In this document: piece after piece, positions 1,584-32,754 of the stretch | Layout: every line of letters starts with the position of its first letter | Position numbering within the stretch: the stretch's first letter is position 1 | Origin: an uncultured Candidatus Saccharibacteria bacterium | Lineage (GTDB): Bacteria; Patescibacteriota; Saccharimonadia; UBA4664; CAZJNH01 | DNA: 64,000 nucleotides | Direction: 5' to 3' | Assembly (NCBI GenBank): GCA_964478595.1 | Contig: CAYZIN010000003.1 | Location: 1,357-65,356, forward strand | The notes under the pieces: model-generated | The model's input: only the letters and a program-made list of their open reading frames with translations | What the model was told of the DNA's origin: nothing | Databases searched by the model: none | Made by a program: the position numbers and the translations under genes

Positions 1584-1682
1584 ATAGTATAACGCTTATG
1601 CTTTTGGCTTTCTTAAGCCTTTTTTCTTGCTCTCATCATTGCTTTAGCGTATAAGAGAAATAATTAACCAAGTGAGGGAAAA

Positions 1683-2009
1683 GTGAATCTCAATCGCGAC
1701 TTTCTTAAAACCTTGGGCGGAATTTTAGTCATCGGTGCAATAGTTGTTGCTACCTTTTTGGTCGGCAACCAGCAAAGGCAAGATCAAATTAGAAAAGAAA
1801 ATCAAGCTCAGCAAAAAGCACCAGTACCAATTAAAAAGAACCAACCCGCTGCCAATTCCGGTAGTTCATCCAGTCCTGCTGCCGGTAAATCTACAGTTGG
1901 GGGAGGCAGCATTCCGCAAACCGGTCCTTCTGACATTGCTTGGCTGATCCTTCCAGCCGCAGCCACCGGGTTCTTTGTGGCTCGCCGCCGCAAAAGCTAC
2001 CAGTACTAG
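1683..2009 (+). CDS. Small cell-surface protein with LPXTG-like (IPQTG) sortase sorting signal
   Basis: The start is GTG with a GAGGG RBS. There is an N-terminal TM/signal helix and a Ser/Gly-rich linker. The C-terminus is IPQTG followed by a hydrophobic stretch and an RRRK tail. Confidence 0.5.
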   Translation: MNLNRDFLKTLGGILVIGAIVVATFLVGNQQRQDQIRKENQAQQKAPVPIKKNQPAANSGSSSSPAAGKSTVGGGSIPQTGPSDIAWLILPAAATGFFVARRRKSYQY

Positions 2010-2080
2010 TTTCAAAGCCAGCGGGCTATTCAGATATGGACAGGTAGGGGCAAAGCCGGTAAAATTAAGCAGTTAAATTT

Positions 2081-3229
2081 ATGGCAACCAAAACCCCTAT
2101 CAGTATGAAAGACTTGCTTGAAGGCACCGAGATCGAGGGTCTGAACGTCGGTGATGCAGTGGAAGGCAAGGTTATCGACATCGAACGCAACGGCGTTTGG
2201 TTAGACCTTGGCGCCCGTGGTACAGGTTTGGTTGTTGGCAAAGAACTCGATATGTCGGAGCCAATTAAGGTTGGTGACGTTTTGGGTGCGACCATTTTGG
2301 ACCCAGAAGCCGATGGTGGTTTTGCGGTGCTCTCACTTAAGCGAGTGGCTAAGGAAAAGGGCTGGGAAGCTCTTGAAGCGCGTTTTAGTGGCGGCGAAAT
2401 CTTTAATATCGAAGCATATGACGCCAACAAAGGCGGCCTTTTAGTCGAGTGCGAAGGCATTCGCGGCTTTTTACCGGTGTCGCAACTAGCAGCCGAGCAT
2501 TATCCGCGAGTAGCCGGAGCCGACAAAGATGAAATTTTGAACCGGTTATCTAGTTTGATTGGTAAACCTTTGCGCGTACGAATCCTAGACATCAACCGCC
2601 GCGAAAGTAAGCTGATCTTCTCTGAAAAAGAAGCACTTAGGGAAGATACTCAACAGCGGGTAGCCCAATTGAAGGTAGGTGATGTGGTTGAAGGTTTGGT
2701 AACGGGTGTAGTTGATTTTGGAATTTTCCTGAACATTGATGGCATAGAAGGCTTAGTCCATATTTCTGAAATTGCTTGGGATCGAGTGGATAACCCGTCG
2801 AGTTACGTCAAGGTTGGGGAGAAAATCAAAGCTAAAATTATCGCCATCGACAAGGACAAATTGAGCTTATCGATCAAGCAATTAAGCGACGATCCATGGC
2901 TGGCTGAGATAAAAAAATACAAAGTCGGTGACGTGGTAGAGGGGAAAGCCACCCGCATTACGCCCTTTGGCGCCTTCGTCCAAGTTACCCCCGTAATCGA
3001 AGCCCTAGTGCACGTTTCGGAGTTGGCCGATGAGGGCACCGAGGATCCGGCTAGTTTGGTGAAACTAGGTGAAACGATGCAGTTTAAGGTCATTGATATT
3101 GATACCGAATCGCACAAGCTTTCATTGTCACTAAAGCAGATGTCTGAAAAAAAGCCGGCGAAGGCTAAAGCCAAAACGCCTGCCAAGAAGACCACTAGAA
3201 AGAAGGATGAGGACGCCGATCAGTCCTAA
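2081..3229 (+). CDS. rpsA: 30S ribosomal protein S1
   Basis: It contains four S1 domains with repeated VGDVVEG/GKV motifs and a lysine-rich C-terminal tail. Confidence 0.9.
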   Translation: MATKTPISMKDLLEGTEIEGLNVGDAVEGKVIDIERNGVWLDLGARGTGLVVGKELDMSEPIKVGDVLGATILDPEADGGFAVLSLKRVAKEKGWEALEARFSGGEIFNIEAYDANKGGLLVECEGIRGFLPVSQLAAEHYPRVAGADKDEILNRLSSLIGKPLRVRILDINRRESKLIFSEKEALREDTQQRVAQLKVGDVVEGLVTGVVDFGIFLNIDGIEGLVHISEIAWDRVDNPSSYVKVGEKIKAKIIAIDKDKLSLSIKQLSDDPWLAEIKKYKVGDVVEGKATRITPFGAFVQVTPVIEALVHVSELADEGTEDPASLVKLGETMQFKVIDIDTESHKLSLSLKQMSEKKPAKAKAKTPAKKTTRKKDEDADQS

Positions 3230-3247
3230 CGCTGATCGCACCCAACC

Positions 3248-5005
3248 ATGAGCGATCAGCCAACCACAAAAATCCAAGTTCCCGAAGCTATTCGGGTCGG
3301 TGAATTTGCCGAAAAGCTTAACTTGCCCGTGACCAAAATTATTGGCGAGTTGATGAAAAACGGGGTAATGGCGACCATCAACGAAATGATCGATTACGAC
3401 ACGGCTGCCATTATCGCTAGCGATTTGGGAATTGAAGTTGAACCCGAAGTAATCGAAGAGGCTGTGGCGCCAGTGGTTGAGAAGGTCAAAGACGGCGAAA
3501 ACCGACCGCCAGTAGTGGCAGTCATGGGGCACGTCGACCACGGCAAGACCAAGTTACTCGATGCCATTCGTCAAAGCGATGTGGCCAGTGGTGAAGCCGG
3601 GGGAATTACTCAACACATTGGCGCCTACCAAGTTAAACGCAAAGATCGCTGGATTACTTTTCTTGATACCCCCGGCCATGAAGCCTTTTCAGCTCTGCGC
3701 GCTCACGGCGCTAAGATGACCGACGTGGCGGTGATTGTAATCGCCGCGGACGATGGTGTAAAACCCCAAACCAAAGAAGCCATCGATCACGCCAAAATGG
3801 CTGGCGTCAAAATCGTAATTGCAATTAATAAAATCGACAAAGAGGGTGCCGATGCCAATCGAGTCAAAACTCAATTGGCGGAATTAGGCCTAAACCCTGA
3901 AGAGTGGGGCGGCGATACAGTGGTGGCAGAGGTTTCAGCCAAAGCCGGCACCGGGATTGATGAGCTCCTAGACCTCGTTTTATTGGTAGCGGACATTGAG
4001 GAATTAAAGACCCGCAAAGAAGGTCCCAGCGAAGGCATGGTGGTGGAATCCCACCTTGAAAGCGGGCGAGGTCCGGTGGCGACGCTACTGGTTAACAATG
4101 GCACGCTGAAGGTTAGTGACTATATCGTGGCCGGCAACACCTATGCCAAAGTGCGCAGCTTGGAAAATGACCGCGGTAAAAAGATTAAAGAGGCGACTGG
4201 CGGCATGCCGGCGGTGGTTAGCGGTTTTAAGGAGGCACCAGCCTTTGGTCAAATCTTTTATGGGGTCGAAGCCGAGCAGCAGGCGCGGGAAAAGTCGACG
4301 GCCGGTAAGCGTTCGGCTCAAGCTAAAAGTATGGTTAGGGTCAAAAAAATTGAGGCCCAAGACATCGCCAACGCTATTACGGCTGGCAAAGTCAAAGAAC
4401 TTAATGTGGTGATTAAAGCCGACGTTCAGGGATCACTAGAAGCGTTGCTAGATTCGTTGAAAGACCTTCGCAACGAAGAGGTTGGTGTAAAGGTAATTCA
4501 AGGCGGTCTTGGCGATATTTCGGAAAACGACGTAAATGCCGCCAAAACGGCGGGAGCTTTACTGATTGGCTTCAATGTCGGAGTGAACTCGCGGGTTAAA
4601 CAATTGGCCGGCCGTGAGCAGGTCCAAATCCAGCTCTACAAAGTTATTTATGAACTGCTCGATAATTTGCGCGATGTATTATCGGAAATGCTGGATCCTG
4701 AGGTAATTGAGCACGCCGTCGGGACGTTGGAAATTCTGGGAGTCTTTAAAGTCAAAAAGGGTTCAGTGATTTGCGGCGGTGAGGTTAAAGACGGTAAAGT
4801 CGAACCGAAGCTGCAACTTAAGATTTCTCATAGCGGCAAAGAGGTTGGTCGCGGCACCGTGATCAGTCTGCAACGGGAAAAGCAGGCAGCCAAAGAAGTT
4901 AATGCCGGCGAACAGTGCGGAATGGAAATCGCTACCTCCGCCACAATCGAAGTTGGCGATAAACTCGAATTTTTCACTACGGAGACTAAAGCCCGGAGGC
5001 TGTAA
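3248..5005 (+). CDS. infB: Translation initiation factor IF-2 (short form)
   Basis: The G-domain carries GHVDHGKT, DTPGH and NKID motifs. Its C-terminal domains are typical of IF-2. Confidence 0.95.
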   Translation: MSDQPTTKIQVPEAIRVGEFAEKLNLPVTKIIGELMKNGVMATINEMIDYDTAAIIASDLGIEVEPEVIEEAVAPVVEKVKDGENRPPVVAVMGHVDHGKTKLLDAIRQSDVASGEAGGITQHIGAYQVKRKDRWITFLDTPGHEAFSALRAHGAKMTDVAVIVIAADDGVKPQTKEAIDHAKMAGVKIVIAINKIDKEGADANRVKTQLAELGLNPEEWGGDTVVAEVSAKAGTGIDELLDLVLLVADIEELKTRKEGPSEGMVVESHLESGRGPVATLLVNNGTLKVSDYIVAGNTYAKVRSLENDRGKKIKEATGGMPAVVSGFKEAPAFGQIFYGVEAEQQAREKSTAGKRSAQAKSMVRVKKIEAQDIANAITAGKVKELNVVIKADVQGSLEALLDSLKDLRNEEVGVKVIQGGLGDISENDVNAAKTAGALLIGFNVGVNSRVKQLAGREQVQIQLYKVIYELLDNLRDVLSEMLDPEVIEHAVGTLEILGVFKVKKGSVICGGEVKDGKVEPKLQLKISHSGKEVGRGTVISLQREKQAAKEVNAGEQCGMEIATSATIEVGDKLEFFTTETKARRL

Positions 5006-5325: not shown

Positions 5326-5363
5326 GTTGCCAGATCTTAGCGAAAAGCTTATGCTCTTATCAT

Positions 5364-5678
5364 ATGGACGGTCAACAGCCGCAAGATATTGAACAGTTTG
5401 TGGACTGGATTTTAGCTCAGAAGGGTGAGCTAAAAGACACACCAGAAGATGTTAAAGTTCAACTCAAGAAAGATTTAGTCGAAAGCCTTGAAGATCAAAT
5501 CAACGCTGCGCTTTTAAGTTCGATTCCGCAAAAAGATTTGCCAGAAATGGATCAGCTGATTCAAAACCAGGCATCTCAGGAAGAGATCGTGAAGTTTTGC
5601 GAGACTAAAATTCCCGATATGAAGAACCTGGTTGCCGGAGTTTTAGCGCGTTTTAAAACTGATTTTTTGGGAGCTTAA
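5364..5678 (+). CDS. Hypothetical small acidic protein, first gene of the giant-protein operon
   Basis: This is an acidic 104-aa ORF. Its stop overlaps the start of the next gene (TAAATG). Confidence 0.4.
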   Translation: MDGQQPQDIEQFVDWILAQKGELKDTPEDVKVQLKKDLVESLEDQINAALLSSIPQKDLPEMDQLIQNQASQEEIVKFCETKIPDMKNLVAGVLARFKTDFLGA

Positions 5679-8600
5679 ATGTCCGGAGAGGGAATTAGTC
5701 CGGACGCAGGGGGTGAAGTAACAGGGGCTTTTTCGAGTCCAGATTTGGCGACGCCAGCCCCCGACGCACCGCACAGAAATCCCGAGCCGGGTACAGTAAT
5801 TCACCCTAATGGGCTGGAGGTACATCTGGTCGGCGCCGATGCTAATGCCCGCGCGCGGGACGAAGCTGATCGCCGAGTAGATAGTGAAGTAGCCGAAAAA
5901 GGTCTTTTGACTAGAATCTGGAAGGGCAACCTTGCCAAAGATTATTACTCGATGAAGTACGAGAGGGAAGAGCGCGCCAAGATAGAAGCGGCCGGCACGC
6001 CGTTTCTAAATGAAGAGGAAGCCACTAAAACCATCGAACGCTTTGCCAGCGAAGCCGAAAGCATGGTCGACACCGAAGCCGGCGAGAGTAAGGTTGAATT
6101 GTCTGAATTGCCCGGCGGCAATGAATTAAAGGATCAGTTTAAGGCTCTTATCAGGGAAGTGGCCGAAAAAGACATGTCCCGGCCAGCGTTTGAACAAGAA
6201 AAAACTAGGCTTATTAACGAAGTAGCCTCCAAGAATCCGGAGTTAGCCAAAGCCGGACTCCAATACGCCGATAACATCGAAAAGATTGCCGAACAAGTCG
6301 AAGCTAGGGTCGAGGCCGGCGAGGTTCTGGATAATTTATTGGCGGAGACGAAGATTTATCTAGACCGCGCTCGTGCCGGTGTTCGGACCGAGGCTCAGTA
6401 TGGCGCGATCGACCGCGTGTTCGAAAAGATTCGCAGTCACGGCCTTAGCGCGGTGGCAAATGAAGGAGTTTTGGCTACCGCTATTTCAGTTGGCTACACA
6501 GCGGCTCGCTGGAGCGGCCGACGAGCAGTAGCAGTAGTAGGCAAAATGGCGATTCCTGGAATTTCCAGTGGAATTTTAGCCGGCATGCGTGAAAACAAAT
6601 TCATGAAAGATGAACGTCGTCGTCACAATCGTGAAATGGCCGAAGGTATGCAAACTACCGAAGCGGCGTCGCGGCGGCGGATCGAGCTTGAAAACGTTCG
6701 CTATGAAACAGCATCTAGTAAAGATTTAGTCGACGCCCTGAATTCATCGTTGTTTGAAACCGACCCCGAAGGTAAGAGGGTCGAAAGGGATCTTGGTGGA
6801 GACGAATTGGTTGATGCTATGCACTTGGTGGCAGAGATCGATGCTCGTCGCCAGTTATCTAACCGAATGAGAATTGATCTGATTACTTTTAGCGACAAGA
6901 CTACGGTCGAGCAGGAGCGGTTTGAGCTTTATAAATCGGTATCCGAGGCGAAGACTATCCTGGCCAAGCAATTTGAGGCTGGGGACGACACGTTTAAGGC
7001 TGAAACTTTGGGAGATAGTACTTTTGCAGATGCGCTGGCTAGTTTGAGATATATTGAGGTTTCTAATCTCGGAATACATATTGAGCAACAAGACCGAGCG
7101 TTTGATCATTTACGGCGGGTAGAGGTTGCTAAGGCCGCTGCCAAAGGAGTTTTGATCGGAGCGACGATCGGCCTGATCGCGCAAGAAGCAACCTCCTTCT
7201 TGCGGGCCGACCAGACTGGACTTCTCGAACACGCGCTTCATCACGGCGGAAATTCCGAGCGCGCTCATCAAACCCTGCTGCTTAGTATTTTTGGTCGTCA
7301 CGAAGTTGGCCACCTAAGTGCTCACGATGCGCTGCCTGGCGGCAAGGGTGAGGTACAAATGCCCAAAGGCGTGAGCTTAACTCATGACGCCAATGGCAGC
7401 TTTAGCCTGCACGACGGTGGTAAAGAAATTGCCCATGGTTTGAAGTTTAATAACGGTCAGATGGATCCGGGAACTAAGGCAGCCTTGACCCATGCTGGTT
7501 ACGTTATCCAATCGGAACACGTACAGTCCGGCACCGAGGCGGTCATGCGCACTCCGGATCAGTTAATTGCCCACCATTCGGGAGATTTTAAAACAGTTAA
7601 TCGGCAGCTGTGGTACGACAACAACACTCCGCAATTTGACCGCAATGAACTTGGGTTAGGATGGGCGGGAACGAACGGTCTGGACGCAAATGGCAACTAC
7701 ATTTACTCGGTGGCCCATATGACCGTTGGCGGTTCAACTCACGCCGGGCTTTCGGCTAATGCCCAACAATTGGTGTCCGAGGGCCGTATGAAACTGTTAA
7801 TTTCGGCGTCTCGAGAAACGCAAAACCGCGCGCTAGAGTTGCCGGTGCGTGCCGATGGTACTGTGCTGATTGCCAAAGATAGCTTGGCCGGAAGAGCCTT
7901 TTTCCAAAACTCCGGCTGTCACGCGGTATTTACTGGGAAATTTGCGGAAGTCGCCCAAACTACCAGCAGTAGTAATGGCGTGGATAATTTCCGTATTTTA
8001 GCTACCGAAGTTGGCCCAGGCCAACCGCGCTTTGTTGATCTTAATCCGAAGGACCTATTTATCACCCGTATTCAGTTGCCACCAACCATAGACGTACCGC
8101 CGATTATTCCAATTTTCGGGCGTGAAGCTTTGGGCGAAGCTGAAGCGCCGGAAGACCAAAACGCCAAAACGATTGAAATTCCGGCAGTGAAGATCGAAGA
8201 GACGCAGCCGGAAAAGGAAGCGCCGGAAAAACCGCTAAGTTTATTTGAACTAAAAGAGCGGGCTCGGGTGGCGGTGGGAGAACTCAAAAATAGTAGCGTG
8301 ATTACCCCGGCCGAACGCGAAGTGATCGCAGCCAATATTGGTCGAATTACTCAAAACATGCAGCGCCGAGAGGTAACGCAATCGGATCTGGCCAGTTTGT
8401 CGGCGATGTTTATTAACTTGAACCAAAAAGCTCCAGAGCAAATGCCGGGCAATTTATTGCCTCATTATGTTCAGTCCTTATTGGCGGTAGATAATCAACT
8501 GGCTCGTCAAAAAGAGGTTGGATGGGAGATTGGCGAGTCAGCCCGAACCGTTTATCCGGCTGCGAAACCTTTCGAAACTGGCGAAGCCGATGAGCGTCCG

Positions 8601-9305
8601 AGGCCACCGTCGTTAACTCTGTTTGAGCTTAAAGAACGGGCCCGGCAAGCGGTTGGCGAAATGAAAAATAAGGGCGGGATTACCCCTGCGGAACGAGAGG
8701 TCATCGCTTCAAACCTAGGTCGGATTACTCAACGGATGAACCGGCGCAACGTCACGCAATCGGATCTTTACAGCCTATTTTCAATTTTCACAAAATTGCA
8801 TCAGACCGAACCGGACTTAGTGCCAAGAGACGATTTAGAGTCGATCAACGCTTCGATTTTGGCGGCCGATGGAAAGCTGGGCAGTCAAAAAGATGAGGGT
8901 TGGGAGATAGGCGAGTCAGCGCCGACGGTTCACCCCTCGCCCAAACCCTTCGAGGTTACCGCCAAGCCGGTCTCGCCATCAGTCGATACCGACGCCCCTC
9001 CCAAGACGCCAGGCTATTTAAGCCGTGAAAATTTCCTCAACCGGGCCGAAGAGCGTGGTCGAATTCCAGTTGATGTTGATGCCTCACCCGAAGCCGCTCC
9101 ACCCACAGATGTTGATGCAACTCCTGCTTCGCCGGAGGAAGAGCCTGAAGTTAAAACCGGCCCGGCGATTTGGCGCAATAACGACGCCGACCTGCCGGTT
9201 GAAGTTGAGGGTTTCGCTGGAACGCGTGACGGGCGAGCGTACGTCAATGTCCTCGGTAGTGCCACGGCATTGCCACTTGATGAAATTGTCTACCCCGAGG
9301 GTTAG
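5679..9305 (+). CDS. Giant (1208 aa) membrane-anchored protein with coiled-coil N-region, two tandem 125-aa repeats and an acidic Pro-rich C-terminus
   Basis: The reading frame is long and uninterrupted. Hydrophobic helices lie around aa 265-310 and 490. There is an internal tandem repeat (PxSLxLFELKERAR...GWEIGESA) and a DVDASPEAAPPTDVDATP C-terminal tail. Confidence 0.7.
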   Translation: MSGEGISPDAGGEVTGAFSSPDLATPAPDAPHRNPEPGTVIHPNGLEVHLVGADANARARDEADRRVDSEVAEKGLLTRIWKGNLAKDYYSMKYEREERAKIEAAGTPFLNEEEATKTIERFASEAESMVDTEAGESKVELSELPGGNELKDQFKALIREVAEKDMSRPAFEQEKTRLINEVASKNPELAKAGLQYADNIEKIAEQVEARVEAGEVLDNLLAETKIYLDRARAGVRTEAQYGAIDRVFEKIRSHGLSAVANEGVLATAISVGYTAARWSGRRAVAVVGKMAIPGISSGILAGMRENKFMKDERRRHNREMAEGMQTTEAASRRRIELENVRYETASSKDLVDALNSSLFETDPEGKRVERDLGGDELVDAMHLVAEIDARRQLSNRMRIDLITFSDKTTVEQERFELYKSVSEAKTILAKQFEAGDDTFKAETLGDSTFADALASLRYIEVSNLGIHIEQQDRAFDHLRRVEVAKAAAKGVLIGATIGLIAQEATSFLRADQTGLLEHALHHGGNSERAHQTLLLSIFGRHEVGHLSAHDALPGGKGEVQMPKGVSLTHDANGSFSLHDGGKEIAHGLKFNNGQMDPGTKAALTHAGYVIQSEHVQSGTEAVMRTPDQLIAHHSGDFKTVNRQLWYDNNTPQFDRNELGLGWAGTNGLDANGNYIYSVAHMTVGGSTHAGLSANAQQLVSEGRMKLLISASRETQNRALELPVRADGTVLIAKDSLAGRAFFQNSGCHAVFTGKFAEVAQTTSSSNGVDNFRILATEVGPGQPRFVDLNPKDLFITRIQLPPTIDVPPIIPIFGREALGEAEAPEDQNAKTIEIPAVKIEETQPEKEAPEKPLSLFELKERARVAVGELKNSSVITPAEREVIAANIGRITQNMQRREVTQSDLASLSAMFINLNQKAPEQMPGNLLPHYVQSLLAVDNQLARQKEVGWEIGESARTVYPAAKPFETGEADERPRPPSLTLFELKERARQAVGEMKNKGGITPAEREVIASNLGRITQRMNRRNVTQSDLYSLFSIFTKLHQTEPDLVPRDDLESINASILAADGKLGSQKDEGWEIGESAPTVHPSPKPFEVTAKPVSPSVDTDAPPKTPGYLSRENFLNRAEERGRIPVDVDASPEAAPPTDVDATPASPEEEPEVKTGPAIWRNNDADLPVEVEGFAGTRDGRAYVNVLGSATALPLDEIVYPEG
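8232..8960 (+). repeat. Two tandem copies of a repeat of about 375 bp (125 aa) inside the giant gene
   Basis: Copy 1 begins PLSLFELKERARVAVGELKNSSVITPAEREVIAANIGRITQNMQRREVTQSDL. Copy 2 begins PSLTLFELKERARQAVGEMKNKGGITPAEREVIASNLGRITQRMNRRNVTQSDL. Both end in GWEIGESA. Confidence 0.8.
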
Positions 9306-9307
9306 TT

Positions 9308-10348
9308 GTGCCTGAGAAACAGGGACCAGCCGGCCAAGAACACGAATTTCACTCTAGCCTGACTGAGCTGGATATTGCCGAAACGATCGAGCGGATTCCT
9401 GACCAGGAACAAGCTAAAGCTATTGCCTTAAATACTCATACGGCGCTAGAACGTTTTAAAAAAGCCTGCCAGGAATCAGAGCCAGACTGGGCCAATTATC
9501 GCTGCGCGAATTATGACGCCAAATTGCTACCGAGCCTAACGACTTTATACGGTATTAAAGAAGCTGACATTGGTTCGTTGGGCCAGCATATCTACGGCGA
9601 ATTCACGAAGTTTGGCGAACACATGGATCGGCGGAAACAGGCTTTGCCGGCCACGGAGGGGATCGTTAAGCGAATTGAAGGTCAATATCCCTGGTTTTAC
9701 GTGGGTGTCAATGAGGTAGAACGGGTCCGAAGAGGTCTTCGGGAGCGCAATATTGGTCGAATCTACGTTAATCCGCAGCCCCAGAACGTGCCGCGGGTGT
9801 TTGCTGAAATAGTTAATCTTGGAGCAAAAACGCAGATTCCCTTTGAGCTAAAGGCGCGCGGAGTTATGCATTCGGGTTTAAATGAAATTTCCAAAAAATC
9901 GTATGAACGAAAAAACGGCGAGAGAACTATTTTGGCCCGCGACAGAATTGTGGTTTATTTCGACAATCGAGACGAGTCTGGGATGTTAAAAATAATAGAA
10001 GAGCTTGCTGGTTTGCACGGCAAAGAGATGTCTAACGATCGGCCAGATTTTACGATGCCTTTAGGAATTAAAGCTAACGGCCAAAAGGTTCCCGGATTTA
10101 GTTTTGGTGAAGAGCCGAATAAACGCGAAAAAGGTCGGACGGGCTCGTTCTCGAGCCGGCGGGAAGAAATCCTTAGCCTCATCGAACTCGGGGCTCAAAA
10201 GGCTGGACGGCGGGTTTACGAACCTAGTTTTAATATAGACGCTGCGTTCAATCAGGTTGCAAGGCGCGAAGGAATTGATCCAGATAATCCGGCATTTAAC
10301 TTGGGTAGCACTAATTTTCCAGAGATTCGAAAACTCGGTTTTAGGTAG
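9308..10348 (+). CDS. Hypothetical 346-aa protein translationally coupled to the giant protein
   Basis: A GTG start lies 3 nt after the giant-gene stop. No family was recognised. Conserved-looking blocks include RIYVNPQPQN and RIVVYFDNRDESGMLKIIEELAGLHG. Confidence 0.55.
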   Translation: MPEKQGPAGQEHEFHSSLTELDIAETIERIPDQEQAKAIALNTHTALERFKKACQESEPDWANYRCANYDAKLLPSLTTLYGIKEADIGSLGQHIYGEFTKFGEHMDRRKQALPATEGIVKRIEGQYPWFYVGVNEVERVRRGLRERNIGRIYVNPQPQNVPRVFAEIVNLGAKTQIPFELKARGVMHSGLNEISKKSYERKNGERTILARDRIVVYFDNRDESGMLKIIEELAGLHGKEMSNDRPDFTMPLGIKANGQKVPGFSFGEEPNKREKGRTGSFSSRREEILSLIELGAQKAGRRVYEPSFNIDAAFNQVARREGIDPDNPAFNLGSTNFPEIRKLGFR

Positions 10349-11257: not shown

Positions 11258-11917
11258 GTGGAGATGAATCCTAGTTTTTCTAATCCGCACCAACCCCACG
11301 ACGTTTTTCAGCCCAATGGGGAAGTGCATCATTCTCCTCCGCAGCAGCCAACTTCGCCGCCCCCGACAGTAACCCCCGTTCAAACGTTCGAACCGACTCT
11401 TCAACCAACCCCAGTTATCAAGTACTTGTCGACACACGCGACCGAGTTTTTTCTAATGTTGTTAGCGATGGCCCTGGCGGCTTTTTCTTTGGGTGCTATT
11501 TTGCATAGCGGAGTTGATCGTTTAACTGGCGTTGATAGCAGTTATTTTACCGACGCTTTTTCCATTTCCAGCGCGTCGCTGATTGTGTCGTTACCGATTT
11601 TCGCCTTACTCTTTTTGCGCATTAAGCGAGCAGAGCATCGCAACCCGGTTCTCTCTCAAGACATCTCGCGCCACCGATTAGTGCAGCTTACTCTGGTTGT
11701 TAGCTTTTTGGTGGGACTCAGTAAGTTGATTACGTATTTTTACGGCTTGCTAAACCATACCAGCTCCGATGGCGGTTTTAATATCTTTAGTTTTTTTGGA
11801 GCGGGAGACACCTCGACTACTTCGGGGTGGGGTAATTTCTTGCATATGGTTGTGACCATGGCGATCGCGGGCGGGATCTTTACTTATTTTTGGATCGACC
11901 ATCACCGAAGGGTCTAG
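11258..11917 (+). CDS. Hypothetical multi-pass membrane protein with Pro-rich N-terminus
   Basis: The N-terminus is Pro/Thr-rich (PPQQPTSPPPTVTP) and is followed by about four hydrophobic helices. Confidence 0.45.
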   Translation: MEMNPSFSNPHQPHDVFQPNGEVHHSPPQQPTSPPPTVTPVQTFEPTLQPTPVIKYLSTHATEFFLMLLAMALAAFSLGAILHSGVDRLTGVDSSYFTDAFSISSASLIVSLPIFALLFLRIKRAEHRNPVLSQDISRHRLVQLTLVVSFLVGLSKLITYFYGLLNHTSSDGGFNIFSFFGAGDTSTTSGWGNFLHMVVTMAIAGGIFTYFWIDHHRRV

Positions 11918-29911: not shown

Positions 29912-30000
29912 TTATTTCTTCGAACTGTCTGGGGGGCGGAGCATCTGTGAGGGTGCAGTTGCTTCGCTGCCTGGACGGTCTACGAAAGAAAGGAACGCAA

Positions 30001-32754
30001 GTGACAGTTACGGAAATCAAGCCGTACGAAGAGCTGAAGGCTCGATTGGCGGAGGAGTTCGAGTTGGAGAAGGCGCGCAAGCCTTCATTCACCGAGAACT
30101 CGCGTACTACCTTCGACCTTCGATACTCAGTGAAGAACGAGGCCGGCGAACTGTCGGAGGATCCCCGCGAGGCGATCTGGCGGGTAAACTCCAACGTCTC
30201 CAGCATCACCCCGCTTTACTCGGGCTACCAAGGAACGACGGAGCCGGCGGAGGTTGATCGCGACACGGTGCCGTTCCCGCTGAAGCAGGCAGTTCGTCAG
30301 TACAACTGGTTGCTGAAGCAGGATCGGGTGCATTGCTCGTTCGAGGAACTGATGACCCACGGGGTCGACCAGTGGATCGAGCGGGCTCATACGTACCAGG
30401 AGATGGCGACGAGTTGGGACCACGTGTTCAATTCGCCGACTTGGACCGGAGCGGGGACTGGCCTGATGCAGTTGGCCGCTTGTTTCGTCCTGCCGATCTC
30501 CGACGACCTCGGCCGCGGCCGCTCGAGCATCTTCGAGACGCTCAAGGTGGCGGCGCTGATCCAGCAGACCGGCGGGGGCAATGGCTTCTCCTTCTCGGCG
30601 CTGCGCCCCAGCGGATCGCTGGTCCGGCGCAGCATGGGCAAGGCGACTGGGCCGATGGGCTTCCTCGAGGTCTACAACGCGGCCTTCGGCGTGATCGCTC
30701 AGGGTGGTTCGCGCCGGGGTGCCAACATGGGTGTGCTGCGAGTCAGCCACCCGGACATCCGGCCGTTCATCCAGTCGAAGGTTGTCGAGGGAGAGATCGG
30801 CAACTTCAACCTGAGCGTGGCGATCGAAGACGCGTTCATGGACGCCGTCGAACGCGACGGCGACTGGGTCTTGCAGTGGAAGCTCAACTCGCCGACGGAC
30901 GATCCGGTTGACTACCAGTTGACCGAGACCATCCGGGCGCGGGAGCTCTACGACGAGATCGTCAAGAACGCTTGGGTGATCGGAGACCCCGGCAACCTGT
31001 TCATCGATCGAGCCAACCGGGACAACCCGGTGCCGAAGCTCTACGTTCTGGAAGCCACCAATCCCTGCGGGGAACAGTGGCTGCCGCCGTATTCGAACTG
31101 CTGCCTCGGCTCGATCGCGGTCGTCAACTTCGTCGAATGGGACGAAGCGCGCGGTTGTTACGTCATGAACTGGGAGCGGCTGCGTCAAACGATCGTCCTG
31201 GCAACCGAAGCGCTCGACGACGTCATCGACGCCAACGCCTACGTTCCGGAAGTTCCGGAGCTGGAGGCGGCGGCGCAGGGCGAGCGGCGAATCGGGTTGG
31301 GCCAGATGGGCCAAGCGGATGCCATGATCAAACTCGGCATTCGTTACGGCGCTGCGGACGGTCTCGACTTCGCCAGCCAGCTGACGGAGTTCGTGCGTTA
31401 CCACAGCATGCTGACGTCGATTCGGCGGGCCAAAGAGCGCGGACCGTTCGAGTGGATCGAAGATTCGATCTACGATCCGAAGTTGCTGCGTGAACTCGGT
31501 CCCGGGGCGGAGATCTCAGGCGAAATGACCGATGGCAGCGGGCGGATGTACTCGTCGCGGCTATGGCAGCCGCCAACGCCGCTGGTCAAACACGAACGCG
31601 ACTTCGGCCGGCCGGACTGCGACTGGATCGTCGTGACCGAAGGCATCATGGAGCACGGCATCCGCAACGCCTGTCAGCTGACCATCGCCCCGACCGGCAC
31701 CATTGGTACTGTGTCGGCGATGGAGGGCTACGGCTGCGAACCGCTGTTCGCGCTGATCTACGAGCGGACGGTGATGCAGGAAGGCAAGGACATCAAGCTC
31801 TACTACCTGTCACCGCTGTTCGTTGAGGCTCTGCAGCGCGCCGGTATCGACGACGCGACGCAGAAGAAGATCCTGGACAAGGTCAAGGAAACGGGGTCGT
31901 GCCAGGGGATCGAAGAGGTGCCGGCCGAGATCCAGAATGTGTTCGTGGTGTCGGCCGATGTGACCGGCGATGAGCACGTTTGGACGCAGGCTGTCATCCA
32001 GCGGTTCGTCGACAACTCGATTTCCAAGACCATCAACCTCCCCAAAGAGGCGACGGTTGAGGACGTGTCGGCTGCCTACAAGCTGGCTTACCAGCTCGGT
32101 TGCAAGGGCATCACGGTTTACCGGCAGGGTAGTCGGGAACGTGAGGTTCTGGCAACGGGCAAGGGCGACCAGACGATCGATCCGGATCACTGGCCGTTCA
32201 TCGAGCCGATGCCGCTGCCCGGCTACGTCGAGACGGTGGGTCTACCGACGCGGACACTGCGGATGCCGACGCCGTTCGGTAAGCTTCACGGGTATCTGAC
32301 GGAGCTGGTCGAACACCCGGGGCGTCCGTTTGACACACGGCTGCAGTTCGGTAAGGCCGGCAACGACAAGGCGGCCGACATCGAAGCCATCGGTCGGTTG
32401 ATCTCGCTGTGCTTCCGGGCGGGAATCAACGTCAAGGATGTGGTTGACCAGCTCGAAGGCATTGGCGGTCAGAGTCAAATCGGGTTCCGCGACCGGAAGG
32501 TGCGGTCTTCGCCCGACGCGATCGCCAAGACCTTGAAGCGGCTTTACATGCCTGAAGAGTGGGCAGCCGACTACGCTCTTGACACCCCAACCAACGGCTC
32601 AGCGCCCACGGTTGTGGCGGAGCCGGCGGCTGTGAGCAAGCCGCGCGGTGATTTGTGCCCGGAGTGCAAGAACTACTCGGTAGTTCACATTCAGGGTTGC
32701 AAGTACTGCAAGCGGGAGCTGGGGGGCTGCGGCAAGCAGCTCAACTGCGACTAG
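30001..32754 (+). CDS. nrdJ: Class II (adenosylcobalamin-dependent) ribonucleotide reductase with C-terminal zinc ribbon
   Basis: It has the TNPCGEQWL active-site motif and class II-like domains. The C-terminus is CPECKN...[19 protein letters not shown] is about 63%. The start is proposed as GTG 30001 with an AAAGGA RBS. The ORF-track GTG at 29947 is also possible. Confidence 0.9.

Follow-up and report, generated by a model that had tools for sequence, protein, structure and literature searches.

A putative three-gene operon and its junctions

The subject of this analysis is a putative operon of three forward-strand genes at positions 5364-10348 of a 64-kb stretch (64,000 nucleotides, hereafter the window) of contig CAYZIN010000003.1, from an uncultured Candidatus Saccharibacteria bacterium. 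Judged by its sequence and its modelled fold, the product of the third gene is a divergent member of the HopA1/LanY family in a new setting, and by sequence comparison the first two genes form a pair that recurs in related genomes, with the third gene found behind it at this locus only. The three genes, the junction at which gene 3 is coupled to gene 2, and a promoter-like site ahead of gene 1 are located as follows.

5364-5678, plus strand: gene 1, 104 amino acids (aa), DUF5663 family, ATG start
5679-9305, plus strand: gene 2, large protein of 1208 aa, ATG start
9308-10348, plus strand: gene 3, 346 aa, HopA1/LanY family, GTG start
9297-9310, plus strand: coupling junction of genes 2 and 3, made up of GAGGG, the stop codon TAG (9303-9305), TT and the start codon GTG (9308)
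5327-5355, plus strand: promoter-like site, TTGCCA and TATGCT spaced by 17 nucleotides (nt), ending 8 nt ahead of the gene 1 ATG

An earlier sequence-only reading of this DNA had described three chained open reading frames (ORFs) of 104, 1208 and 346 aa, and these were confirmed at exactly the above coordinates, with TAA/ATG and TAG-TT-GTG junctions. The TAA of gene 1 (5676-5678) abuts the ATG of gene 2 (5679), which has GGGAG 5 nt upstream of it, and the Shine-Dalgarno-like GAGGG of gene 3 lies 6 nt upstream of the GTG, within the final codons of gene 2. No terminator-like sites were found between the three genes, and the end of gene 3 overlaps the convergent fmt gene by 8 nt. Seven promoter-like sites occur in the region against 4.9 expected from shuffled sequences, which makes for weak evidence in the case of the site at 5327-5355. 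Since no Shine-Dalgarno sequence is present between this site and the gene 1 ATG, the operon transcript may, as far as the sequence goes, be leaderless.

That genes 2 and 3 are joined by a programmed frameshift or a fusion was considered and rejected: the gene 3 frame contains a TGA at 9281-9283, and inspection of the 19-nt gap revealed no slippery heptamer. Given the lack of a heptamer and the presence of a Shine-Dalgarno sequence and a GTG instead, the two genes were treated as separate. The gene 3 frame is open across its first 105 codons, while the other two frames contain 4 and 9 stops (chance of about 0.0065), and the N-terminal extension of gene 3 is on these grounds probably translated. 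The GC content is about 51% overall, and all three genes are unremarkable for this genome in GC and codon usage.

The gene 3 product and the HopA1/LanY family

According to the sequence-only reading, the 346-aa product of gene 3 matched no recognisable family, a statement that did not survive comparison with Pfam. Over aa 145-330, covering profile positions 21-170 of 170, it matches the HopA1 family (PF17914) with an E-value of 9e-10 and 39.1 bits, above the curated cutoff of 22.7, and its predicted fold is that shared by HopA1, LxmY, OspF and SpvC. The protein falls into two parts with different isoelectric points (pI).

9308-9664, plus strand: N-terminal extension of gene 3, aa 1-119, pI 5.2, partly helical
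9665-10348, plus strand: HopA1/LanY-type phospho-Ser/Thr lyase-like domain of gene 3, aa 120-346, pI 9.8

HMMER, run exhaustively against 1.84 billion representative proteins, identified 106 relatives of gene 3, all of which align to aa 120-346 only, and one relative came from a word-indexed protein search. The 68 relatives that were aligned match PF17914 without exception. No relatives were found for aa 1-119, as homologs align solely from about aa 120 onward, and this part shows no similarity to DUF5663 or to the repeats of gene 2; a helix at aa 33-64 is nevertheless modelled with a predicted local distance difference test (pLDDT) score of 83-93. Neither a signal peptide nor a recognised secretion signal was found in the gene 3 product.

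An AlphaFold2 model, computed from an alignment of the same 68 of the 106 relatives, has a pLDDT above 90 over most of the domain (aa 150-346). Foldseek comparison of this model with the PDB placed HopA1 first (4rsx, E-value 2e-8; 4rsw_A, 1.3e-6; probability 1.00), together with LxmY from the lexapeptide dehydratase LxmKY (9dk2_B, E-value 1.6e-7, probability 1.00, root-mean-square deviation 3.5 Å over 216 columns). Lyase domains of class III lanthipeptide synthetases (LanKC) were matched as well, and the phosphothreonine lyases OspF, SpvC and VirA more weakly. At the level of sequence, a profile of the domain only also ranks HopA1 4rsx first in the PDB, with an E-value of 0.03, while the single protein and a full-length profile gave nothing meaningful there.

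Residues R151, K182, D212 and Y217 of gene 3 occupy columns that are at least 90% conserved among the relatives. The spacing from R to K is 31 residues (32 in CaoY), and an R.D..V.Y motif is present. The PF17914 members CaoY, LxmY and TvaD are lyases acting on phospho-Ser and phospho-Thr, from which they eliminate phosphate (PMC9486802). In CaoY, the exchanges R187A and K219A abolish or nearly abolish lyase activity, R229 contributes to activity and is not essential, and Y236 is conserved and has not been mutated (PMC9486802).

Another layer of annotation comes from domains fused to the family elsewhere. An FHA domain is joined to the HopA1-like domain in 11 of the 68 gene 3 relatives and additionally in the proteins of three metagenomic loci (L027, L030 and L036), in which larger HopA1-like proteins are encoded at the following positions.

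L027, 483-2441: larger HopA1-like protein
L030, 65-2179: larger HopA1-like protein
L036, 19-3189: larger HopA1-like protein

FHA domains bind phospho-Thr, and because they are fused to this domain in relatives of gene 3, phospho-Thr would fit as a substrate for the HopA1-like domain. The sequences suggest a wider, undescribed FHA-plus-lyase architecture. On low-GC metagenomic contigs the HopA1-like domain often makes up the C-terminal end of larger proteins, commonly after an FHA domain, and it was also seen in two very large proteins, P0051 (1814 aa) and P0086 (3160 aa). The closest relatives of gene 3 are found in varied gene contexts, without an adjacent kinase.

The DUF5663-large-protein pair and its relatives

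The product of gene 1 is small and acidic (pI 4.3) and scores just under the cutoff of the Pfam DUF5663 family (PF18908; 23.1 bits, cutoff 23.7). Through jackhmmer, with E-values from 1e-30 to 1e-41, it is joined to small genes located upstream of the large gene in related loci, and those of L001-L004 bear precomputed PF18908 hits (weak in L004). By sequence, gene 1 is a member of the DUF5663 family, unambiguously related to small genes annotated as such. The related loci number 26, of which 22 derive from species-level genomes, and consist mostly of Saccharibacteria metagenome-assembled genomes (MAGs), with a few MAGs of other Patescibacteria lineages, a make-up that also makes a Saccharibacteria-like organism the most likely source of the window. 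In 24 of the loci the large gene is preceded, at a distance of 0-26 nt, by a DUF5663 gene of 99-131 aa; the exceptions are L008, which is cut by a contig end, and L024, in which the called ORFs overlap. Many related loci furthermore share the neighborhood, i.e. S1-infB-(rbfA), the pair, and then convergent fmt-def-priA. Because this neighborhood and the DUF5663 linkage recur across loci, we read the pair as vertically inherited: in sequence comparison genes 1 and 2 look like a core pair, not a mobile cassette, specific to Patescibacteria and found mostly in Saccharibacteria.

The gene 2 product is 30-36% identical to 25 relatives over approximately aa 25-830 (E-values 1e-68 to 1e-135). Seven relatives were found in a collection of 5.8 billion proteins by word-indexed search and 22 loci in species-level genomes, and repeating the search of the large collection with a 26-sequence profile added none. 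Comparison with Pfam, NCBIfam, PADLOC, PHROG and the PDB gave no match for the protein, in agreement with the earlier description of it as uncharacterised. Its features are the following.

5679-8126, plus strand: conserved N-terminal part of gene 2, aa 1-816, ending at the boundary motif PPIIPIFGRE (aa 807-816)
6450-6581, plus strand: pair of hydrophobic segments, aa 258-276 and 283-301, with the basic loop RWSGRR between them
7125-7181, plus strand: third hydrophobic segment, a Gly-zipper, aa 483-501, AAAKGVLIGATIGLIA
7344-8078, plus strand: beta-rich middle domain, aa 556-800, with conserved motifs, e.g. WYDNNTP, NGNY and GLSANAQ
8235-8984, plus strand: two tandem repeats, aa 853-978 and 979-1102, period 126 aa, predicted helical
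9009-9302, plus strand: acidic Pro-rich tail, aa 1111-1208, 20% D+E, 12% P, net charge -12

Read from its N-terminus, the conserved part consists of an acidic helical region (aa 1-257), the hydrophobic pair, a charged helical region (aa 302-482), the third Gly-zipper segment, the beta-rich domain and the boundary motif. Internal transmembrane helices had been proposed for this protein, which was an overstatement. Three hydrophobic segments keep their positions in all 26 relatives, the loop between the first two always carries K or R and never D or E in these 26, and the third has the family consensus AAAxGxxxGxxxG; their hydrophobicity is borderline, the segments being Gly/Ala-rich with Kyte-Doolittle maxima of 1.07 (aa 258-276) and 1.62 (aa 283-301), the latter being the overall maximum for a 19-residue span. 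The flanks of the third segment are net basic upstream and net acidic downstream in all relatives. On this sequence evidence the three Gly-zipper segments are probably a membrane anchor. The large non-repetitive middle domain of the sequence-only reading was borne out: aa 556-800 are predicted to be beta-rich and form the best-modelled part of the protein (AlphaFold2 pLDDT of about 70-86). Foldseek found no significant match for the gene 2 model in the PDB or BFVD.

Past the boundary motif (PP.IP..GR) similarity within the family is lost. Instead, 20 of the 26 relatives end in a glycosyltransferase family 2 (GT2)-like domain with a DAD motif, several of them at or near the Pfam cutoffs for that family. 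Other ends are a GT9 heptosyltransferase-like domain with PHA_gran_rgn (L012, 4272-8864) and a DnaJ domain (L019, 2678-6172), and in two relatives (P0008 and P0010) neither a GT2-like, GT9 or DnaJ end nor the helical repeat was found. The GT2-like domain is absent also from the gene 2 product of the window, as judged by Pfam and by a profile of six Pfam-supported GT2-like C-terminal regions, and the two repeats sit where most relatives carry it; model confidence is low there. These repeats, which had been called near-identical with a length of 125 aa, proved to be considerably diverged: with a period of 126 aa they are 56% identical as protein by BLASTP (E-value 9e-39) and 60% by tblastn, and 72-75% as DNA, and Tandem Repeats Finder did not detect them. 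Outside the window the helical repeat was found only in L005, as a single copy.

The acidic Pro-rich tail that follows was correctly described at the outset, and the C-terminal region of gene 2 has a pI of 4.7. The last 49 residues (aa 1160-1208, nt 9156-9302; AIWRNNDADLPVEVEGF...LPLDEIVYPEG) constitute a small module that recurs elsewhere, namely at the N-terminus (aa 11-65) of a protein of 790-794 aa in L001 (5173-7557, minus strand) and L002 (493-2865, minus strand), with a jackhmmer E-value of about 1e-29. This protein, for which Pfam gave no match, adjoins the DUF5663-large-gene pair, and in L001 a second DUF5663 gene comes next.

No signal peptide was recognised in the gene 2 product, judging from a hydrophilic, acidic N-terminus and from hydrophobic segments that are internal only, and neither anchor nor adhesin-type domains came up in a Pfam scan. 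Domains of the GT2, GT9 and J types act in the cytoplasm. Because the C-terminal domains of its relatives are thus cytoplasmic, and because it has no signal peptide, the sequences favor a gene 2 protein anchored at the cytoplasmic face of the membrane. For the same reasons, and in view of the missing anchor and adhesin domains, the initial proposal of a surface protein for host attachment finds no support.

As for the association of gene 3 with the pair, a profile of the HopA1-like family detected no HopA1-like ORF in any of the 26 related loci, most of which continue for more than 1.2 kb past the large gene. In L005, which holds the closest relative of gene 2, the large gene directly abuts fmt and there is no HopA1-like gene. 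In many other related loci, the slot of gene 3 holds an ORF of about 108 aa and a second DUF5663 paralog. Conversely, neither DUF5663 nor a relative of the large protein was found in 13 metagenomic loci with a HopA1-like domain. In sequence comparison, then, the triad is not conserved, only genes 1 and 2 form a conserved pair, and gene 3 belongs to it at this locus only. The view of the triad as a dedicated system gives way to that of a pair linked in 24 of 26 related loci, with a HopA1-like gene in none. Two kinds of contrary evidence had been named in advance, a triad that does not stay together in relatives and a partner homologous to a housekeeping enzyme; the former is what was observed, while the family to which the partner belongs is not one of housekeeping enzymes. 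Absence from all 26 related loci makes a gain of gene 3 in this lineage the most parsimonious explanation, and its ordinary GC content and codon usage speak against a recent gain.

The second DUF5663 paralog is longer (117-162 aa, starting with MFQLDD.) and occurs in many Saccharibacteria loci. Six downstream paralogs lie about 400 nt past the large gene, usually after an ORF of 92-125 aa and directly before convergent fmt. In the window this slot is occupied by the HopA1-like gene 3, and no second DUF5663 gene was found within the 64 kb. The paralogs are located as listed.

L010, 12422-12841: second DUF5663 paralog, downstream of the large gene
L014, 12506-12934: second DUF5663 paralog, downstream of the large gene
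L016, 12535-12963: second DUF5663 paralog, downstream of the large gene
L021, 12351-12794: second DUF5663 paralog, downstream of the large gene
L022, 5110-5595: second DUF5663 paralog, downstream of the large gene
L023, 11079-11510: second DUF5663 paralog, downstream of the large gene
L001, 4611-5099, minus strand: second DUF5663 paralog, upstream of the large gene on the opposite strand
L017, 6290-6643, minus strand: second DUF5663 paralog, upstream of the large gene on the opposite strand

L008 (4363-7598) has, behind its large gene, first a DUF5663 gene and next a gene for a 918-aa VirD4/TraG-like, coupling-protein-like ATPase. A homolog of this ATPase (E-value 1e-149) is encoded in L040 (5814-10698), two genes downstream of that for P0011, the protein most closely related to gene 3. 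A coupling-protein-like gene is thereby found near one of the 26 related loci and in one locus with a gene 3 relative, and a link to type IV secretion, resting on these two occurrences, was set aside as too weak for use. L040 also contains, at 1597-4344, a phenylalanyl-tRNA synthetase beta subunit with an internal precomputed hit to the NLPC_P60 peptidase domain, an unusual combination.

Around the operon, the window is given over to housekeeping genes. Upstream of gene 1 are genes for an S1-domain protein, IF-2 (infB) and RbfA, and downstream, convergently oriented, are fmt, def and priA; the remainder of the 64 kb encodes e.g. ribonucleotide reductase, a LytR-CpsA-Psr protein, HtrA, ParB and SecD, as well as ORFs with FtsA- and FtsZ-like N-termini, these last two judged by the look of the N-terminus and not by a family scan. 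No Rfam families, including rRNA, and no secretion-system genes were found in the window, and a motif scan of all window ORFs together with Pfam scans of the flanking ORFs revealed no kinase genes. A DUF5671 membrane protein is encoded just past fmt (11258-11917), and the ribonucleotide reductase (29947-32754), which has a C-terminal TSCPD domain, lies in the most GC-rich stretch of the window (62.5% at 30001-32000).

Possible roles of the operon and comparison with known systems

The explanation we prefer, and to which we give about an even chance, is that of a composite operon, in which a phospho-Ser/Thr lyase-like gene has been added to a conserved DUF5663-large-protein pair. Genes 1 and 2 would be the vertically inherited part, with gene 2 anchored in the membrane and its GT2-like catalytic end replaced here by two helical repeats and an acidic tail. 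Gene 3 would be an addition placed immediately after the pair, with its start coupled to the gene 2 stop. From its family and modelled fold, its product would most likely act on phospho-Ser or phospho-Thr in a protein or peptide and beta-eliminate the phosphate, leaving dehydroalanine or dehydrobutyrine, which a kinase could not reverse. We infer that gene 3 is catalytically active and might serve as an enzyme module in trans, its basic domain (pI 9.8) docking on the acidic C-terminal region of gene 2 (pI 4.7), with all of these components at the membrane's cytoplasmic face.

Several points weigh against this reading. The correspondence of R151, K182 and Y217 to R187, K219 and Y236 of CaoY is drawn from motif spacing and not from aligning the two proteins directly. 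Where CaoY has R229, the corresponding column contains Ala210, next to which is Arg211, and an insertion of 18 residues, modelled with low confidence, lies between K182 and the Ala210/Arg211 motif, for which reason the register at these two residues is uncertain. HopA1 itself has no demonstrated lyase activity, and the characterised LanY lyases act in complex with a LanK kinase (PMC9486802), while no kinase was found among the window ORFs. For gene 2, the AlphaFold2 model is poor overall (mean pLDDT 52, predicted template modelling score 0.30), and the charge pattern around its segments misfits a simple three-helix model, so that an assignment of topology by the positive-inside rule was rejected. 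Lastly, the tight coupling of genes 2 and 3 could merely mark the site of insertion.

This last point leads to a second explanation, in which the genes are independent: gene 3 would have been inserted between the large gene and fmt, and its product would be an irreversible eraser of the cell's own cytoplasmic phospho-Thr marks within Ser/Thr-kinase/FHA signaling. The absence of gene 3 from all 26 related loci and the persistence of the pair without it agree with this, as do the varied, unrelated contexts of the gene 3 relatives, the FHA fusions of the family, which point to bacterial phospho-Thr signaling, and a gene 3 product without signal peptide. However, the 2-nt spacing and the Shine-Dalgarno sequence inside gene 2 imply co-expression, gene 2 has lost its usual catalytic end in this lineage, the lyase domain and the gene 2 C-terminal region have complementary charges, and no Ser/Thr kinase was seen within the 64 kb of the window. 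We regard independence of the genes as possible, if somewhat unlikely.

A host-directed effector system, the role nearest to that first imagined for the operon, is in our judgment unlikely. Gene 2 would here be a membrane-inserting delivery platform, the DUF5663 protein an adaptor or chaperone, and the gene 3 lyase would be passed into a host bacterium, where it would irreversibly inactivate phospho-Thr-dependent kinase/FHA signaling. OspF, SpvC and HopAI1 irreversibly inactivate host MAP kinases, and gene 3 shares its family or fold with the type III effectors HopA1 and OspF/SpvC. The organization of the gene 2 family, with a conserved N-terminal part and an exchangeable end past a fixed boundary motif, would suit such a system, as would the small acidic partner encoded upstream, the VirD4/TraG-like gene two genes from P0011 and its homolog behind the large gene and the DUF5663 gene of L008. 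Moreover, Saccharibacteria have an essential type IV secretion system, which is suspected of exporting proteins (PMC10633639). Against this, the products of genes 2 and 3 are without signal peptide or recognised secretion signal, the same GT2-like end is found in 20 of 26 relatives, unlike in polymorphic effectors, and the pair resides in a housekeeping neighborhood and looks vertically inherited; a coupling-protein-like gene is near only one of the 26 related loci, and the window has no secretion-system genes. Type III effector features were likewise missing for gene 3, as there are no type III secretion genes in the window and no relatives of aa 1-119. An effector role of the triad is therefore treated as speculative, and its most specific form appears quite improbable, i.e. 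that an epibiotic Saccharibacterium uses gene 3 as a contact-dependent effector, which enters the bacterial host by way of gene 2 as docking or translocation platform, possibly via a type IV apparatus, and irreversibly turns phospho-Thr/Ser sites in the Ser/Thr-kinase and FHA signaling proteins of that host into dehydro-amino acids.

That gene 3 supplies the lyase half to a dehydratase of peptide natural products, as in the LanK-LanY pairs of class V lanthipeptides and thioamitides, is highly improbable, for although it shares the Pfam family of CaoY, LxmY and TvaD (PMC9486802) and the fold of LxmY, no aminoglycoside-phosphotransferase-like kinase, precursor peptide, cyclase or decarboxylase adjoins it, its neighbors being gene 2 and fmt; its closest relatives also lack such neighbors and are often FHA-fused, and the LxmY sequence is too dissimilar for a profile hit. 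The idea of a polymorphic toxin with immunity gene, or of phage or mobile-element cargo such as a tape-measure-like large protein, is largely refuted and carries very little probability, for the variable C-terminal end after a conserved boundary motif and the large, helical product with Gly-rich hydrophobic segments are countered by the lack of any PHROG or PADLOC match, of relatives on viral contigs, of significant fold matches to viral proteins (BFVD), of a compositional anomaly and of a known toxin domain at the gene 2 C-terminus, by a downstream gene whose 346-aa enzyme-fold product is unlike an immunity protein, and by a chromosomal position conserved across many genomes in which most relatives share one type of C-terminal domain.

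If the composite operon is as we propose, a reduced genome of the Patescibacteria would contain a HopA1/LanY-type lyase, which is neither of the two settings known for the family, i.e. peptide natural-product pathways and the type III effectors of plant pathogens. Such a lyase, taken with the relatives fused to FHA domains, would suggest a branch of the family devoted to the irreversible erasure of bacterial phospho-Thr marks. If, on the other hand, the effector explanation were true, it would provide the first case of a bacterium directing a phospho-lyase effector at another bacterium. A full-text literature search returned no paper with both HopA1 and Saccharibacteria and none mentioning DUF5663, and the N-terminal part of gene 2 is without a Pfam model. 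The DUF5663-large-protein pair is a widespread, syntenic and wholly uncharacterised feature of Saccharibacteria, with the usual GT2-like end suggesting that it may act in the cell envelope; relatives without this end, including that of the window, are natural variants in which the conserved part could be studied. The triad itself is a testable lead from one genome, whose functional steps are deduced from sequence and model.

Among known systems, the LanY lyases (CaoY, LxmY, TvaD/ThoD) resemble gene 3 in belonging to PF17914, in the fold of LxmY and in the Arg/Lys/Tyr spacing of CaoY. Unlike in their pathways, gene 3 has neither a LanK kinase nor a precursor peptide or any other peptide-pathway gene near it, and it moreover departs from them by the Ala in the R229 column, the 18-residue insertion and an unrelated 119-aa N-terminus, and by being coupled, in a reduced genome, to the gene of a large membrane-associated protein. 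HopA1 of Pseudomonas syringae (4rsx, 4rsw) offers the best fold match and the best PDB profile match, and its GR...K...D..V.Y motifs align with those of gene 3, although identity is only about 14-16% and the N-termini are unrelated. HopA1 is delivered by type III secretion with its chaperone ShcA and targets plant EDS1 (PMC9486802), whereas no type III system is seen in the window or expected. OspF and SpvC give weaker but consistent fold matches (E-values 1e-4 to 2e-2) with no detectable sequence similarity, and beta-elimination by means of a catalytic Lys and Tyr is the chemistry proposed for them as for the gene 3 family. The LanY/HopA1 branch does without the active-site His and Lys of OspF and has Arg in their place (PMC9486802). 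The nearest counterparts of gene 2 are the DUF5663-linked large proteins of other Saccharibacteria (L005, in OY970378.1, and P0004 and P0005 from JGI), which share the N-terminal part, the three segments, the boundary motif and the upstream DUF5663 gene. Gene 2 differs from 20 of the 26 family members in having no GT2-like end, and shares its repeats only with L005. Among the DUF5663-linked large genes, it is the only one that precedes a HopA1-like gene.

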